21,539 bases of DNA from IMG/VR virus record IMGVR_UViG_2565956714_000006, positions 1 to 21,539 of that record. The stretch is one strand, 5' to 3'. Both the position numbers and the translations under genes were made by a program. Positions 1 through 20,269 of this stretch are shown here, in pieces. The DNA comes from a virus. Taxonomy: Duplodnaviria; Heunggongvirae; Uroviricota; Caudoviricetes. Within the stretch, counting starts at the first letter, position 1. The number at the start of each line of letters is the position of its first letter. The notes under the pieces were generated by a model. That model saw only the letters and a program-made list of their open reading frames with translations. It made no database searches and had not been told where the DNA came from.

Positions 1-1215
1 ATGCTCACCGTTAAGCAGATTGAAGCAGCAAAGCCGAAAGAAAAACCATACCGCCTACTCGATGGTAATGGCCTGTACCTTTATGTCCCTGTATCAGGGA
101 AAAAGGTATGGCAGCTTCGCTACAAGATTGACGGTAAGGAGAAAATCCTGACTGTCGGAAAATATCCGCTTATGACTTTGCAGGAAGCAAGGGATAAGGC
201 ATGGACTGCGAGGAAAGACATCTCGGTTGGCATCGATCCGGTAAAGGCGAAAAAGGCTTCGTCTAACAACAATTCCTTTAGTGCGATTTACAAGGAATGG
301 TACGAGCACAAGAAGCAAGTCTGGTCAGTAGGCTATGCAAACGAACTTGCCAAAATGTTTGACGACGACATTTTACCCATCATCGGCGGTCTTGAGATTC
401 AGGATATTGAGCCGATGCAACTGCTGGAAGTAATCCGAAGATTCGAAGATCGCGGTGCAATGGAGCGAGCCAACAAAGCCCGCAGAAGATGCGGCGAGGT
501 TTTCCGTTACGCTATTGTCACCGGAAGGGCTAAATATAACCCAGCACCTGACCTTGCTGACGCCATGAAGGGATACCGCAAGAAGAACTTCCCGTTTCTT
601 CCTGCAGACCAGATCCCGGCATTCAACAAAGCACTGGCAACATTTTCAGGAAGTATCGTATCGCTCATTGCGACCAAAGTTTTACGCTACACAGCCCTAA
701 GAACGAAAGAGCTTCGTTCCATGCTATGGAAGAACGTCGATTTTGAAAACAGGATTATCACCATCGACGCCAGTGTGATGAAGGGACGCAAAATTCATGT
801 GGTTCCTATGTCAGACCAGGTAGTTGAACTTCTCACTACGCTAAGCTCCATCACCAAACCAGTATCAGAGTTTGTTTTTGCCGGTCGCAACGATAAGAAG
901 AAGCCAATCTGCGAGAACGCGGTATTGCTTGTGATCAAACAAATCGGCTATGAGGGTCTGGAAAGCGGTCACGGATTCAGGCATGAATTCAGCACGATTA
1001 TGAACGAGCACGAATGGCCTGCTGATGCTATTGAAGTGCAACTGGCACATGCCAACGGCGGATCTGTGCGTGGGATTTACAACCATGCTCAGTATCTCGA
1101 TAAGCGCAGAGAAATGATGCAGTGGTGGGCGGATTGGGTTGATGAAAAGGTGGAGCAACCAACATTGCTATATTCACTCAGCAAAAACAACAAAAATGTC
1201 AACATAACCAAATAA
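1..1215 (+). CDS. int: P4/IntA-family tyrosine integrase, 404 aa, apparently complete; window starts exactly at its ATG
   Basis: N-terminus MLTVKQIEAAKPKEKPYRLLDGNGLY is typical of P4-type integrases. C-terminal catalytic signature present (R in LRTKELRS, HxxR in HGFRHEF, Y in IYNHAQY). Confidence 0.9.
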   Translation: MLTVKQIEAAKPKEKPYRLLDGNGLYLYVPVSGKKVWQLRYKIDGKEKILTVGKYPLMTLQEARDKAWTARKDISVGIDPVKAKKASSNNNSFSAIYKEWYEHKKQVWSVGYANELAKMFDDDILPIIGGLEIQDIEPMQLLEVIRRFEDRGAMERANKARRRCGEVFRYAIVTGRAKYNPAPDLADAMKGYRKKNFPFLPADQIPAFNKALATFSGSIVSLIATKVLRYTALRTKELRSMLWKNVDFENRIITIDASVMKGRKIHVVPMSDQVVELLTTLSSITKPVSEFVFAGRNDKKKPICENAVLLVIKQIGYEGLESGHGFRHEFSTIMNEHEWPADAIEVQLAHANGGSVRGIYNHAQYLDKRREMMQWWADWVDEKVEQPTLLYSLSKNNKNVNITK

Positions 1216-2728: not shown

Positions 2729-4726
2729 CTATTCTGACAACGAATCAGACTTCGCACCCTGCGTCAGGGCGTTAATTGCCTTTTGTGCCTGCTGCATGGC
2801 TTTCTCAAACGCTGTTGATCCGCGTGGGGTGTTTGCCATTCGGAGCATTGCATTTCTGAATGGCTCGCTCTCATAGGCGCGAGTAAGAAGTCCGTAGCTT
2901 ACTGCTGCGCCAGTTGTCGCCGGGTTCATTGCCGTCCCATACCCAATAATGAACGGGATAGTTTGCTGCCCTGTGGGTGTTGTTACTGCCGCTTTTGCAG
3001 CCTGCTGCGTGGATTGCAGGTAGTTTTTTAATCCTTTCAGATAAGCGGCTTCCTGACCTTTAAATGTGATGCCAGTCTGGTTTTGCAGGATGTTAAGCTG
3101 TCGAAGGAACTGGTCAGGGGATCCACCTGATTTCTCCATCGCCTTTCCAATGATGCCATTGCGCATTTGCGCCCTGCCAACACGACCAACTGAGTTATAC
3201 AGCGTCTTAATTTCCGATTTGTTCTTGCTGAATAGCATGTTGTTGACAACTTCCGGCGTCAGGTCGCCTTTCATGAGAACATTCTTCAGCCTGGTATTCT
3301 TTAGTTTCGCCGCTTCGTCAGCGTAGACGGCATTGGCCTGCTGATATTTACGGAGAGTATCGTTGCCAAGATTCTGACCAATGGCACCATTGATATCGTC
3401 TGTCATTGCCTTGTAAACGCGCTGAATGGCAGCATCGGACCGGTTTGGTAACACTGGTCGTTCCCCCTTCACGTCCATTCTGAACTGGCTGCGCAGATCG
3501 CTTAATTGCTTCAAATCCAGATTTACCGGACCATCAGGACCAGCATTGCGAACAAGCTCATCACGATAGGACTGAAGTTTTGAAATAGTCTCGTTATCGG
3601 CGACCTTACCAAGCTTCTGCAGGTTAGATATTTCTGTATCAATCTGCTGAATTGCTCGAGCAGGCTGGATATTGACTCCCGCCATTGCATTCTGAACCTG
3701 CTCAAGACGGTTCCCTGCAGCACGACGAATTCCTGATGTTTTCGCTTTAAGGCTGTCAATAACAACAGCTGGATCATACTCACCGAATTTATCAGCAAAT
3801 CTCTGCACCAACTGGCTTCTCGCTTCCTGTTGCGTTGCTCTCATTCCGCTTGTGCCAGCCAGGGGGATATTTTCCGCTGTCGTCTGCGCCATTTTCCCGA
3901 CGCGGGAAGTAGGCTGTAACAGGTCTGTGGTGTGCAGAGGAACTCCTTCACGCTCTGCAAATCTGATAGCCTGCTGCGCTTCTGGCGCAATAGCACCACG
4001 AACGCCACGATAAGCAGCACCTAATCCACGTCCGGCAGCGTTAATAGCACCGCCAGCCAGCACACCAACGCCTAAATCGGTAGCGAGTGCTTCAGCATCA
4101 TCTTTCATACTGTTTGCAGCAAGTGATCCAACTGCGTTTTCTGCTAGAAGGCGAGTTGCCCCCTGAGCAATTCGACCAGCAAGTGTTGGTGCCTGTACCG
4201 CCGCTCTCTCAACGCCAGCAGGAGTGAGGTAAGGCAATGCTTCAGCAAATACCCTTCCCTCTGTCGTTTGTGGAGTCAGCGCGCCTTGCTGAAGGCCAAA
4301 GTCCTGCTCTACCCCCTGCGTTGTTACTCGTGGCGCTGGTTGATATGTACCATCGCCAATGCCGAGTTTACCGCCAGCCCATGCCGCTGCGCTTGTTACA
4401 GCATCGGCAACTGATGCAGGTATGTTTGCCACGTTCACGCCAGCCTGCACCAGTCCGCGACCAGTCTCTTTTACTGCTTCGCCAAGATCAGACATAAATC
4501 CACTTTGCTGTGGTTGTTGCTGTGCTACTGGTTGCTGTGTCTCCACTTGCTGCACAGATGGCAATGGATAGGCAGCATAGAAAGCTTGCTTAGCCTGCTC
4601 TGCATTTTCTCCGGCTTGCGGGGCCACGACTTCATTGAAGTATTGCTCCTGAGCCTGCGCTTTTTGTTCTGGTGCTAACGCCTGATACTGTGGAGAGGCG
4701 ATAACATCTTTCCATGCTTTAGCCAT
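2729..4726 (-). CDS. P22 gp16-like ejection (internal virion) protein, 665 aa
   Basis: Last gene of the morphogenesis operon in the position of P22 gene 16 / Sf6 gp13. Ala/Gln/Gly-rich composition typical of ejection proteins. Start ATG overlaps the upstream stop (TAATG). Confidence 0.7.
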   Translation of the reverse strand: MAKAWKDVIASPQYQALAPEQKAQAQEQYFNEVVAPQAGENAEQAKQAFYAAYPLPSVQQVETQQPVAQQQPQQSGFMSDLGEAVKETGRGLVQAGVNVANIPASVADAVTSAAAWAGGKLGIGDGTYQPAPRVTTQGVEQDFGLQQGALTPQTTEGRVFAEALPYLTPAGVERAAVQAPTLAGRIAQGATRLLAENAVGSLAANSMKDDAEALATDLGVGVLAGGAINAAGRGLGAAYRGVRGAIAPEAQQAIRFAEREGVPLHTTDLLQPTSRVGKMAQTTAENIPLAGTSGMRATQQEARSQLVQRFADKFGEYDPAVVIDSLKAKTSGIRRAAGNRLEQVQNAMAGVNIQPARAIQQIDTEISNLQKLGKVADNETISKLQSYRDELVRNAGPDGPVNLDLKQLSDLRSQFRMDVKGERPVLPNRSDAAIQRVYKAMTDDINGAIGQNLGNDTLRKYQQANAVYADEAAKLKNTRLKNVLMKGDLTPEVVNNMLFSKNKSEIKTLYNSVGRVGRAQMRNGIIGKAMEKSGGSPDQFLRQLNILQNQTGITFKGQEAAYLKGLKNYLQSTQQAAKAAVTTPTGQQTIPFIIGYGTAMNPATTGAAVSYGLLTRAYESEPFRNAMLRMANTPRGSTAFEKAMQQAQKAINALTQGAKSDSLSE

Positions 4727-17346: not shown

Positions 17347-17865
17347 TCACTTTGGCAGTCCGGGGATCGATATTTGCGCCTGCTGCTCAAGCCTTTCGAT
17401 TCTTGCTATGAGTTGCGGTTTTTTGATCCTGCCCCAGCGGTTTAGCAAGCGTCCTGACATACTGGCAACATCCTTTTCCTTCATGAACTCCAGCATTAAC
17501 TCGTTGTGCTCTCTTTGGTATGAGTGAGCCATCTCCATCAGCCTGTCACGCATCCAATTAAATGCTTTGATAAACGCCTCTTTGATGGCGGCAGCTTTTT
17601 TGCCGGTAAACGACATGATGATGTACATCGCGCCGTCTTTGGAAATTTCATATTCAACATACTGATTACCCTTGTGTTCATAGGTAACCCGCGAAAAGTT
17701 GCTGGTTAGAAATTCATCCGAACAGTCTAGCTTTTCGATTTTCTGAATGATGTGGTGATGCTGCTTGTCGAAGTAAGCTGCTACCTTGCGGGAGGTTGTG
17801 ATCACGCGATCACCAGAAACAACCACCATGTCCCGGAAATCGAGATTAGCCAATTGATGATTCAT
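17347..17865 (-). CDS. Rha-family phage regulatory protein, 172 aa from ATG at 17865 (track ORF uses upstream GTG at 17901)
   Basis: Motifs TTSRKVAAYFDKQHHHIIQKIEKL and YEISKDGAMYIIMSFTGKKAAAIKEAFIKAFNWM fit the Rha N-terminal domain consensus. Confidence 0.65.
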   Translation of the reverse strand: MNHQLANLDFRDMVVVSGDRVITTSRKVAAYFDKQHHHIIQKIEKLDCSDEFLTSNFSRVTYEHKGNQYVEYEISKDGAMYIIMSFTGKKAAAIKEAFIKAFNWMRDRLMEMAHSYQREHNELMLEFMKEKDVASMSGRLLNRWGRIKKPQLIARIERLEQQAQISIPGLPK

Positions 17866-18014
17866 AGCGTCTTTACCTTTTAGAAAGTGAGCCTGTCTCA
17901 CAGAAAAGCCGCCCCGAGATGGTCGCCACCATATACGGCAGTTCTCAGGCTCAACTTTCTGAAAGGCTCGGGTGATGTAATATGCGCGTAAGATGCGCTG
18001 TGAAATTCAGATGT

Positions 18015-18509: not shown

Positions 18510-18982
18510 GCCTCAATCTCTCTTACCGTTCCGCCAGCTTCTTTGAATTTTGCAATCAGGCTGTCAGCCTTATGCTCGAACTGACCATAACCAGCACCCG
18601 GCAGTGAAGCCCAGATATTGCTGCAACGGTCGATTGCCTGACGAATATCACCGCGATCAATCATCGGTAAAGCGCCACGCTCCTTAATCTGCTGCAGCGC
18701 AACAGCGTCCTGGCTTTTGGGAGAGAAGTCTTTCAGGCCAAGCTGCTTACGGTAAGCATCCCACCAACGGGAAAGAAGCTGGTAACGTCCGGCTGCTGTT
18801 GATTTGAGTTTGGGGTTTAGCGTGACAAGTTTGCGAGGGTGATCGGAGTAATCAGTGAATAGCTCTCCGCCAACAATGACGTCATAACCGTGATTTCTGG
18901 TTTTCTGTCGTCCGTTATCTGTTCCCTCTGACCACGCCAGCATATCGAGGAACGCCTTACGTTGATTATTGATTTCCACCAT
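18506..18982 (-). CDS. R: Endolysin R (lytic transglycosylase), 158 aa, lambda-type
   Basis: Near-identical to lambda R as recalled ([26 protein letters not shown]...). Confidence 0.95.
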
Positions 18983-19289
18983 CTTCTACTCCGGCTTTTT
19001 TAGCAGCGAAGCGTTTGATAAGCGAACCAATCGAGTCAGTACCGATGTAGCCGATGAACACGCTCGTTATATAAGCGAGATTGCTACTTAGTCCGGCGAA
19101 GTCGAGAAGGTCACGAATGAACCAGGCGATAATGGCGCACATCGTTGCGTCGATTACTGTTTTTGTAAACGCACCGCCATTATATCTGCCGCGAAGGTAC
19201 GCCATTGCAAACGCAAGGATTGCCCCGATGCCTTGTTCCTTTGCCGCGAGAATGGCGGCTAACAGGTCATGTTTTTCTGGCATCTTCAT
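18966..19289 (-). CDS. S: Holin/antiholin S (S107/S105 dual start), 107 aa, lambda-type
   Basis: Near-identical to lambda S as recalled, including the Met1-Lys2-Met3 dual-start motif (ATG at 19289 and 19283). Confidence 0.95.
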
Positions 19290-19414
19290 GTCTTACCCCC
19301 AATAAGGGGATTTGCTCTATTTAATTAGGAATAAGGTCGATTACTGATAGAACAAATCCAGGCTACTGTGTTTAGTAATCAGATTTGTTCGTGACCGATA
19401 TGCACGGGCAAAAC

Positions 19415-19444
19415 GGCATGAGGTTGTTAGCGCAACCTCATGCC
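19415..19444 (-). terminator. Perfect 12-bp stem hairpin (GGCATGAGGTTG / CAACCTCATGCC, 6-nt loop); candidate terminator or processing element downstream of the tRNAs
   Basis: Perfect inverted repeat; on the minus strand followed by GUUUUG. Lies in the otherwise empty interval between the tRNAs and S. Confidence 0.4.
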
Positions 19445-19531
19445 ACCCGCTTTCACGAAGATCATGTGTAGAAGGCCGCAGCGTAACTATCACTGATGAA
19501 TTCAGGATAGCCAGTGGCTACGGCTCAGTTA

Positions 19532-19607
19532 TGGTGCTGGTTAACGGACTTGAACCGCTACCCATTCGCTTACAAGGCGACTGCTCTACCATTGGAGCTA
19601 AACCAGC
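19532..19607 (-). tRNA. tRNA-Thr (anticodon UGU), CCA encoded
   Basis: Hand-folded cloverleaf: perfect 7-bp acceptor stem, D-arm GCTC/GAGC with GG loop, anticodon loop CTTGTAA, T-arm with TTCAAGT loop, discriminator A. Confidence 0.8.
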
Positions 19608-19612
19608 ATGTT

Positions 19613-19687
19613 TGGCGGGACAGCGTGGACTCGAACCACGATAAGAAGGTTAACAGCCTTCCGTAATGACCTTTATACGACTGACCC
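19613..19687 (-). tRNA. tRNA-Asn-like (anticodon GUU), CCA encoded, one acceptor-stem mismatch
   Basis: Hand-folded: acceptor GGGTCAG/CTGTCCC (T-T mismatch at 4:69), anticodon stem GAAGG/CCTTC with loop CTGTTAA, T-arm CGTGG-TTCGAGT-CCACG. Sits 5 nt from the tRNA-Thr. Confidence 0.65.
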
Positions 19688-19691
19688 AAAT

Positions 19692-19733
19692 AAAAAAAGC
19701 CACCGTTGCAACTTAAGAGTCACTAACGGCAGC
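19692..19733 (-). terminator. tR'-like leader terminator between the late promoter and the tRNA genes
   Basis: Minus-strand RNA stem GCUGCCGUU / AACGGUGGC (9 bp with two G-U pairs; would be C-A/A-C mismatches on the plus strand), 17-nt loop, followed by UUUUUUUAUUU. Confidence 0.5.
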
Positions 19734-19743
19734 TTACCTTCTA

Positions 19744-19773
19744 ATTATGGCTAAATGGATAATTGCATGTCAA
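19744..19773 (-). promoter_or_regulatory. pR'-like late promoter (sigma70 -35 TTGACA, 18-bp spacer, -10 CATAAT) at the 3' end of Q
   Basis: Consensus -35 hexamer at 19768-19773 and 5/6 -10 hexamer at 19744-19749 on the minus strand, where lambdoid phages place pR'. Confidence 0.55.
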
Positions 19774-20269
19774 GGCTTTTAACAGCAACATGCTTAACTT
19801 TCTCAACACGTTTACGCATTTTGAAAGCATTTTGCATTGGCTGGTACAAAACAAATAACGACGCTTTCAGGATGTCGTCAATTTCGTTTCTACAGGTTGC
19901 CAGTGAAGGTTTTCTCCATCCCTCGCCACCACGTCCACACATCTTGCGTGGCTTTGCAGTCGCGTGATAGTAGGATGCAATTGCTCGCTTAGATGAACCA
20001 TGAGCGTAGTAGCTGAGGAGGATGCCAAAGGCTTTCTTGTCAATGCACATGACGGAATCGACGACCTGAGAAATCAACATTCCATCATCATCATTGCACA
20101 TTGGCCTTGTCATAACTCTTCCCGGCTCTACGCTCTCCATGAACTTCGCTATTACGCTGCTCATACGCTTTTCCAGACGACCTGAATAAACCCATGCGCC
20201 CCACAGTTCAAGCCAGCCATTCAGCCACTCATGATGTTCTTTGGTGAGGTTTAGTTCTCTTATGCCCAC
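19751..20269 (-). CDS. Q: Late antiterminator Q, phi82/933W type, 172 aa with probable GTG start overlapping the ninI stop
   Basis: Motifs [21 protein letters not shown] and LLSYYAHG match the conserved pattern of 933W-type Q as recalled; unlike lambda Q. GGAG lies 7 nt upstream of the GTG. Confidence 0.7.

Follow-up and report, generated by a model that had tools for sequence, protein, structure and literature searches.

Two tRNA genes stand in tandem behind the late antiterminator gene Q of a lambdoid prophage, and the questions raised by this locus are which tRNAs they encode, whether both are functional genes, and what a phage would gain from placing these two at the head of its late operon. 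Throughout the window, that is, the whole stretch of 21,539 nucleotides analysed here, ARAGORN called two tRNA genes and no others across the 21.5 kb, and both were also recovered by the Rfam covariance model RF00005, which has a gathering score of 29 bits:

19532-19607, minus strand: tRNA-Thr(UGU), 76 nt, called by ARAGORN, Rfam RF00005 score 61.5 bits
19613-19687, minus strand: tRNA-Asn(GUU), 75 nt, called by ARAGORN, Rfam RF00005 score 55.3 bits

Both matches cover the full length of the RF00005 model (1-71), with E-values of 2e-11 for Thr and 1e-9 for Asn, far beyond chance. The first-pass annotation, made from the letters of the sequence, had described two CCA-encoding tRNA genes lying 5 nt apart at 19532-19687, and these coordinates match those of ARAGORN and Rfam. 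The anticodons UGU and GUU that it had read were agreed by ARAGORN and the covariance model, and covariance-model scoring, which it had named as the test able to refute its reading, rejected neither fold and assigned no different anticodon. On the minus strand, tRNA-Asn is transcribed before tRNA-Thr, with the 5-nt spacer AACAT between them. The discriminator and CCA end are gene-encoded in both (ACCA in Thr and GCCA in Asn), and the anticodon begins at position 34 in both (tgt in Thr and gtt in Asn by ARAGORN), within the 7-nt loops CUUGUAA and CUGUUAA, respectively; the entire anticodon arms read GUCGC-CUUGUAA-GCGAA in Thr and GAAGG-CUGUUAA-CCUUC in Asn.

Regarding the folds, the T-T mismatch previously seen in the Asn acceptor stem is real, and appears as U4·U69 on the NC line of the Rfam alignment. 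Two further mismatches, absent from the first-pass annotation, were found at U13·U22 in the Asn D-stem and at G27·A43 on top of the Thr anticodon stem, and position 14 of Thr is C, the usual residue being A. The T-loop of Asn is canonical. The identity set of E. coli AsnRS comprises G34, U35 and U36 together with G73, and that of ThrRS comprises the pairs G1-C72 and C2-G71 together with G35 and U36. Both sets are complete in the corresponding window tRNAs, with A73 as the discriminator of Thr. Compared with the K-12 host genes, Asn is 58% identical to asnT and Thr 66% identical to thrU. Complementation at the integration site, by which a tRNA makes good a disrupted host gene, is not considered a likely purpose, since the genes lie far from int/att and are only 58-66% identical to host tRNAs.

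The window covers the late region of a lambdoid phage that is P22-like and belongs to the Sf6/CUS-3/720R6 type; it shares virion genes with these phages at ~95-96% identity. At its tail end, the prophage appears truncated by an IS5 element. Around the tRNA pair, the following features were defined, in the direction of transcription:

19751..20269, minus strand: late antiterminator Q of the phage-21 type (Pfam Phage_antitermQ, E = 1e-25)
19744..19773, minus strand: late promoter pR′, TTGACA-18-CATAAT (promoter scan, 11/12 matches), overlapping the end of Q
19688..19737, minus strand: late leader RNA, comprising the qut region and, as intrinsic terminator, tR′ (from the fold, phage 21 identity and Sf6 annotation)
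19411..19449, minus strand: second terminator-like hairpin (19449..19418), with a GC-rich stem of 12 bp and GUUUUG after it, lying past the tRNAs and ahead of the holin gene
18966..19289, minus strand: lambda S-like holin (Pfam Phage_holin_3_1, E = 2e-30), the first protein gene of the late operon after the tRNAs

As had been stated, the pair lies downstream of Q, and this is right on the minus strand, where Q runs from 20269 to 19751 (20269..19751) and is itself preceded by ninG and a ser/thr phosphatase gene. The window Q and that of phage 21 share 81% identity, with most of the divergence in the C-terminal third, and annotations of the corresponding gene as Q exist for Sf6, BTP1 and E. coli prophages. 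The homologous promoter is described as 'nearly identical to phage 21 late promoter' in the Sf6 record and is the 'pQ promoter' of the phage 21 record. Within the leader, the tR′ hairpin spans ~19733-19698, and its U7-A-U3 tract stops 1 nt before tRNA-Asn; the folding energy of this segment (−20.8 kcal/mol, z = −4.7) was matched by 0/200 shuffles. The whole leader segment 19688..19737 is 100% identical to phage 21, whose record places a 50-nt 'aRNA' over the same segment with its last base directly before tRNA-Asn, and the junction between U-tract and tRNA is retained even where a lineage has a different hairpin. In the curated Sf6 record, the same series of pR′, qut site, tR′, tRNA-Asn and tRNA-Thr is found, each labelled 'similar to phage 21'. 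Similarly, the second hairpin folds at −27.9 kcal/mol (z = −5.0, matched by 0/200 shuffles), is largely conserved in Sf6 and has a counterpart in an annotated terminator at the analogous place of phage L; it is regarded as a candidate terminator or processing site. The Sf6 homologues of the holin are genes 60/61, and the holin gene is followed by those for endolysin, Rz, terminase and head proteins. A permissive Rfam scan of 19250-19800 found no structured RNA family besides the two tRNAs.

How the pair is transcribed is called not known in the literature on P22-like phages, where a promoter of its own and excision from the late mRNA are the two options. In the window, the promoter scan found pR′ only and no promoter-like site between tR′ and tRNA-Asn, and a promoter belonging to the tRNAs was rejected because the scan yields pR′ alone and the tR′ U-tract abuts tRNA-Asn, leaving no room. 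From the layout, the pair would be transcribed from pR′ upon antitermination by Q, with a low level coming from read-through at tR′, and host tRNA-processing enzymes would cut both tRNAs out of the late transcript.

The set is not out of the ordinary. The tRNA pair is identical over 156/156 nt to that of phage 21 (AJ237660.1, 4702-4857), is annotated in Sf6, and has been discussed in the literature on P22-like phages. Upstream, complete identity to phage 21 continues across the tR′ hairpin; it does not hold for the promoter or for the end of Q. Identity over a 401-bp region of the locus is 97-99% across 123 phage records, of which 28 reach a coverage of at least 80%, and matches occurred in 1,121 of the 5,426 complete genomes of E. 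coli, 217 of them at this coverage; sequence of this module is present in about one-fifth of the complete E. coli genomes. PGAP labels in these genomes read tRNA-Thr, tRNA-Asn and antiterminator Q. The pair is already known, with annotations in phage 21, in Sf6 and BTP1, and in many further P22-like phages, and a function of the Thr member was published in 2025; the finding made in the window is correct but not new. The earlier distinction from the ileZ-argN-argO set of 933W was borne out, given the anticodons GUU and UGU and a Q of the 21 type. Among P22-like phages, Scho1 is reported to carry Asn GTT and Thr TGT, and phage L carries Asn and a second tRNA; P22 itself has no tRNAs at this site. 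The 'tRNA-Leu(UAA)' of phage L was considered as an anticodon-switched tRNA and rejected, as ARAGORN does not call it and its alignment shows a decayed derivative, 72 nt long, of the Thr gene.

To follow the pair across related loci, IMG/VR was scanned for the distinctive Asn D-arm, which returned at least 120 loci, with ARAGORN tRNA calls in 118 of the loci listed; the Asn D-arm is fixed by the search pattern and is therefore uninformative for Asn covariation. Among the matches listed, Asn followed by Thr was the architecture of 96 loci, the others being Asn followed by Gly(UCC), the series Asn, Phe, Thr and Arg(UCU), and Asn alone, and the spacer measured 5 nt in 98 of the 99 listed loci with Thr directly after Asn. 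The matches listed supplied 18 distinct Asn variants from 114 loci and 20 distinct Thr variants from 101 loci for the covariation analysis. Compensatory double changes were observed in Asn at pairs 5-68, 6-67, 7-66 and 28-42, and in Thr at pairs 3-70, 5-68 and 6-67, and the anticodons and identity elements were strictly conserved amid these stem changes. The mismatches were conserved as well: U4·U69 was kept in 109 of the 114 listed Asn loci, spanning three acceptor-stem lineages, and G27·A43 in 100 of the 101 listed Thr loci, and by this pattern both mismatches look like selected features.

These data bear on the suggestion of the first-pass annotation that the T-T mismatch might make the Asn gene a pseudogene or give it an unusual identity. 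The mismatches U4·U69 and U13·U22 are indeed real, and the minimum-free-energy fold of Asn is only modestly better than those of shuffled sequences (z = −1.7). Against this reading, the Asn gene scores 55.3 bits with Rfam, well over the gathering score, and has the GUU anticodon, G73, the CCA end and a canonical T-loop, with the AsnRS identity set present. The dominant Asn variant is identical in 83 of the IMG/VR loci among the matches listed, and the window copy is the same as those of phage 21 and phage L. Further, U4·U69 persists through three acceptor-stem lineages that differ from one another by compensatory changes at 5-68, 6-67 and 7-66, and such substitutions are not expected of a decaying gene. 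On the basis of the covariance-model score, the identity elements, and compensatory covariation with U4·U69 conserved among the loci listed, the pseudogene reading was rejected, and we consider both a decayed Asn gene and an identity other than Asn extremely improbable.

Another alternative is that the tRNAs have no decoding role and are passengers of the Q21 module, or structural or processing elements of the late leader, such as RNase P/E entry sites that detach it. The tR′ leader and the tRNAs do make up a single block, 100% conserved, which accompanies Q21-type genes in phage 21, Sf6-like and Salmonella phages, P22 manages without tRNAs at this site, and the second tRNA of phage L appears decayed. 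Strict conservation of anticodons and identity elements, with compensatory changes in the stems, argues against such a role, as does the decoding activity reported for an identical tRNA (see below), and we hold this alternative to be very unlikely.

The first-pass annotation had also proposed that phage tRNAs of this kind compensate the codon usage of late or cargo genes. Codon usage was tallied in 18 late genes (5,187 codons) and compared by Fisher test with 41 K-12 genes (14,725 codons), the reference being this gene set and not the whole genome. ACA occurs at 17.0 per 1000 codons in the late genes and 5.4 per 1000 in the K-12 genes (P = 3e-13), a 3.1× enrichment, with ACA accounting for 30% and 10% of Thr codons, respectively, and it is among the most over-represented codons of the late genes relative to this reference. 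Asn codons (AAC + AAU) showed no enrichment in the same comparison of 18 late and 41 K-12 genes, with 43.6 and 37.7 per 1000 (1.16×, P = 0.06). Compensation therefore agrees well with Thr and poorly with Asn. Since E. coli has four asn tRNA genes, Asn supply should not be limiting. Other rare codons are enriched in the late genes, namely AGA (4×) and GGA (2.5×), for which the cassette holds no matching tRNA.

Pure codon supply, in which the tRNAs only boost late genes with non-host codon usage and the nuclease resistance of Thr described below is a by-product of divergence, can be set against these data. It is consistent with the roughly 3-fold ACA enrichment in the 18 late genes, with the place of the cassette at the head of the late operon, and with host tRNA-ThrU(UGU) being the single decoder of ACA, for which a low abundance is cited (PMC12445682). 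In phage L, 24 of the 25 Asn codons of the coat gene are AAC, and the phage L paper suggested that the tRNA supplements the pool. It fits less well with the unenriched Asn codons and with AGA and GGA, which are enriched yet have no tRNA in the cassette. Together with the evidence on the Thr anticodon stem given next, this leaves pure codon supply as a rather doubtful account of the pair.

A better documented role for the Thr member is the replacement of a host tRNA cleaved by a nuclease, as published recently. In the interference between P2 and lambda, the Old protein of the P2 prophage kills cells through cleavage of host tRNA-ThrU(UGU), which it cuts after C28 and C40 in the paired CNG motifs of the anticodon stem, and cells are rescued from Old by phage Thr(UGU) tRNAs (Govande et al., 2025; PMC12445682). 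Resistance to Old requires both altered CNG motifs and a shortened anticodon stem, and the Thr tRNA of phage 21, 'tRNA-Thr21', which carries C28U/G42A and a shorter stem, 'also protected against P2-OLD', stayed uncut in the absence of ATP and showed almost complete resistance at site 1 (PMC12445682). The window Thr gene is identical to that of tRNA-Thr21. Its anticodon stem has G27·A43, U28-A42 and C29-G41, and nt 28-30 and 40-42 read UCG/CGA in place of the CUG/CAG of host thrU, so that both CNG motifs are altered, including the C28U/G42A changes named for Thr21, and loss of the 27-43 pair shortens the stem. By this analogy, the window tRNA-Thr would be of the Old-resistant type, the resistance having been reported for the identical phage 21 tRNA, whose in vivo rescue also implies that such a tRNA is charged.

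The same experiments weigh on both alternatives above. An identical Thr tRNA decoded ACA in vivo well enough for rescue from Old, and rescue by a related phage tRNA depended on its UGU anticodon (PMC12445682), at odds with a passenger or processing element. As to pure codon supply, Old toxicity was rescued by the phage Thr tRNA and not by plasmid-expressed host ThrU, and G27·A43 with a non-CNG stem is held in 100 of the 101 listed loci while other stems covary, which suggests selection on the anticodon stem. A preprint of 2026 independently describes Old-resistant Thr(UGU) tRNAs from T4, T5-like phages and the lambdoid phage HK446, and reports that Thr(UGU) tRNAs of temperate and virulent phages rescue HK97, HK542 and Bas34. 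In the same preprint, viral Thr(UGU) alone rescued neither lambda nor the ΔrecB toxicity, so one tRNA may be insufficient, and Asn was not among the tRNAs depleted >2-fold.

The Asn partner can be viewed in relation to a second nuclease, AriB of the PARIS system, which acts mainly on Lys(UUU), Thr(UGU) and Asn(GUU) (Belukhina et al., 2025; PMC12409363). AriB cuts at C40|N41, next to a UAAU motif; Lys(UUU) is its prime target, and phage T5 variants of Lys, Thr and Asn are needed together to neutralise PARIS, with Lys(UUU) 'required' for escape (PMC12409363). UAAU is absent from both window tRNAs, Thr having UAAGCG (host UAAUCA) and Asn UAACCU (host UAAUCC), and position 41 also differs from the host in each. 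In addition, host asnT has CNG in both anticodon-stem strands (CGG/CCG), and the window Asn has none (AAG/CUU). Judged from sequence, the substitutions at the AriB site make both window tRNAs candidates for resistance. A full anti-PARIS kit was considered and rejected: no tRNA-Lys(UUU), AriB-resistant or other, is present in the window, where ARAGORN calls two tRNAs only, and ARAGORN found no tRNA-Lys in the 118 cassettes among the matches listed. With tRNA-Lys(UUU), the prime AriB target, missing from it, the cassette is unlikely to counter PARIS in full. For Old as well as AriB, Asn is no more than a minor substrate (PMC12409363, PMC12445682). In the listed loci with Gly(UCC) after Asn, Gly was rejected as an evasion variant, being identical to host glyT at 71-74 of 75 nt with CNG motifs kept.

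Taken together, we propose that the locus is a phage-21-type late-leader cassette of a P22-like (Sf6/CUS-3-type) lambdoid prophage, and that it probably encodes a functional pair that sustains late decoding, with Thr as an Old-resistant tRNA; this account is held with moderate confidence. Its main role would be to maintain the decoding of ACA and AAY codons during late protein synthesis. On Thr, two pressures could reinforce each other, the ACA-rich late genes and the position of single-copy ThrU, the sole host ACA decoder, as the prime target of Old. Host ThrU is also among the major targets of PARIS AriB. The phage Thr would replace the decoder that is lost. The Asn partner would probably do the same for a secondary target of the Toprim nucleases Old and AriB. 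Protection may also operate in natural infection. As a caveat, the rescue by Thr21 used a plasmid with a constitutive promoter (PMC12445682).

Expression in the lysogen is touched on by transcriptomics of BTP1 lysogens, in which the late operon starts right after the two tRNA genes, and these appear as a separate item, set apart from the listing of highly expressed genes and apparently highly expressed themselves. Read-through at the late leader could give basal tRNA expression. Timing is a further difficulty for the proposal, in that the tRNAs would be expressed late whereas Old is triggered early.

A broader version of this proposal takes the whole cassette, Asn included, as a compact counter-measure against the Toprim tRNases of rival P2/P4-type elements, which we put forward tentatively and think less probable than not. 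In its favour, Asn(GUU) and Thr(UGU) are the main AriB targets other than Lys, both are substrates of Old, and the UAAU and CNG determinants are lost in both phage copies. The conserved U4·U69 of Asn and C14 of Thr may be further evasion features, and a leaky tR′ together with the second terminator could supply the lysogen with resistant tRNAs without expression of the lysis genes. In the literature on these tRNAs, no proposal of an evasion role for Asn or of expression at the lysogen level was found. Against either version, the Asn-Thr tandem of phage P1 and some Asn variants of the Klebsiella lineage keep sensitive motifs, in the latter case CNG, and the evasion signature is consequently not universal. 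As the phage tRNAs share no more than 58-66% identity with those of the host, chance differences at three or four chosen positions are also not improbable. If the broader version were true for Asn, the pair would be a minimal two-gene answer of temperate phages to P2/P4-borne Toprim tRNases, and the anticodon-stem motifs would be a simple predictor of which prophages escape Old or PARIS. The element itself is a very common and long-annotated part of phage-21/Sf6-type lambdoid prophages, and its value is one of context.

Among known systems, the closest is coliphage 21 (AJ237660), which is like the window in the tR′ leader, both tRNAs, their order, the 5-nt spacer and the position after Q, but has a Q that is only 81% identical, a different promoter and Q-binding region, and another virion module, that of the window phage being P22-like (Sf6/CUS-3). 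In the group of Sf6, BTP1, SPN9CC and CUS-3, the 401-bp region is 97-98% identical with only point differences, and Sf6, in which Q is gene 59, and other P22-like phages have the annotated layout of pR′, qut, tR′, tRNA-Asn, tRNA-Thr and holin found in the window. In 933W and other Stx phages, tRNA genes follow Q/pR′ and precede the first late or cargo genes. The ileZ-argN-argO set of 933W is accordingly placed comparably in a lambdoid phage, but its Ile, Arg and Arg anticodons and its Q type differ, and it has no sequence relationship to the window pair.

Two more distant systems share anticodons with the window pair. The tandem of phage P1 has the anticodons Asn(GUU)-Thr(UGU) in the same order and with similarly tight spacing, the P1 spacer being 2 nt, and its Thr is ~80% identical to the window Thr. 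In contrast to the window pair in the late leader, the P1 genes belong to the C1-controlled ban operon, and are early and repressor-controlled. The P1 Thr retains CUG/CAG and the full 5-bp stem and the P1 Asn retains UAAUCA, and the P1 pair therefore lacks the predicted signature of Old and AriB evasion. Phage T5, which neutralises PARIS by its variants of Lys(UUU), Thr(UGU) and Asn(GUU) (Burman, 2024; Belukhina et al., 2025), has two of these three anticodons in common with the window, and the tRNAs of both carry substitutions relative to the host at or around anticodon-stem positions 39-41. The T5 sequences are unrelated to those of the window beyond a general tRNA likeness, and T5 carries ~25 tRNAs in its early region.

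Between tRNA-Thr and the holin gene, a second hairpin and a small open reading frame (ORF) were found to overlap in the window:

19411-19449, minus strand: second hairpin with a 12-bp stem, followed by GUUUUG
19341-19493, minus strand: 50-aa ORF with a GTG start, matching phrog_22751

The hairpin has a predicted folding energy of −27.9 kcal/mol (z = −5.0). Given this strong hairpin and the GUUUUG that follows it, the tRNA pair is flanked by two terminator-like elements, one on either side. Most of the hairpin is conserved in Sf6, and phage L carries an annotated terminator at the analogous site. When the overlapping ORF was searched against PHROG, it matched phrog_22751, a family of unknown function, with an E value of 1e-29, and a hypothetical protein is annotated at this site in some phage records; the ORF may be no real gene but conserved non-coding DNA annotated in error.

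Farther along the late region, with the lysis genes on one side and the terminase genes on the other, lies a regulator gene that looks like a moron-type insertion, and an insertion element and an integrase gene lie near the low-coordinate end of the window:

17347-17901, minus strand: Rha-like regulator/anti-repressor gene (Pfam Phage_pRha and ORF11CD3)
2729-4726: DNA-transfer (ejection) protein gene
~1442-2643: IS5-family element with 19-nt terminal inverted repeats
1477-2493: DDE_Tnp_1 transposase ORF within the IS5-family element
1-1215, plus strand: tyrosine integrase gene

The end of the DNA-transfer protein gene is separated from the IS5-family element by 85 nt, phage homology reaches its limit at position 2644 on the side of the element, and the stretch from 1216 to 1441 is without any phage match. 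P22-like phages are expected to carry the tailspike and conversion genes at this genome position. Because both are missing from 1-2760 of the window, the prophage looks, by its gene content, truncated or defective.

Within tRNAs, position 14 is nearly universally A, which forms the U8-A14 tertiary pair. In tRNA-Thr this position (19594, minus strand) is C, and it is C or U in every cassette variant among the matches listed in the IMG/VR survey. The phage 21 tRNA-Thr, which has the same sequence including C14, is functional in vivo (PMC12445682).

Expanded tRNA cassettes occupy the same leader slot in Klebsiella-type lineages of IMG/VR (survey loci L014, L056, L073, L097, L101 and others), in the order Asn, Phe(GAA), Thr and Arg(UCU), to which Gly(UCC) is added in some. 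The junction of U-tract and ATTT next to tRNA-Asn is retained in these loci even with a different tR′ hairpin sequence, and the Gly(UCC) genes that they carry differ very little from the host glyT. In another IMG/VR locus, L117, the Thr(UGU) gene at 472-547 of the extracted segment is a chimera, with phage sequence in its first ~25 nt and identity to the host thrU from there on; a glyT-like Gly(UCC) is located 3 nt downstream. Together, the chimera and the adjoining Gly(UCC) suggest that a phage tRNA recombined with the host thrU operon. The 72-nt gene of phage L/ST64T annotated as “tRNA-Leu (TAA)” (481-552 of L006, the Salmonella phage L locus) has no long variable arm, and was not called as a tRNA by ARAGORN. 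In alignment it looks derived from the Thr(UGU) gene, with which it shares the acceptor stem; rather than a Leu tRNA, it is probably a Thr gene that has decayed or been remodelled.

Phage P1 carries a tandem in the same order as the window, Asn(GUU) and then Thr(UGU), at 1425-1578 of its survey locus (L007), where the two genes are 2 nt apart and located in the C1-controlled ban operon. The P1 Thr gene is ~80% identical to that of the window and retains a full stem and the Old-sensitive CUG/CAG motifs, both of which the window gene lacks.
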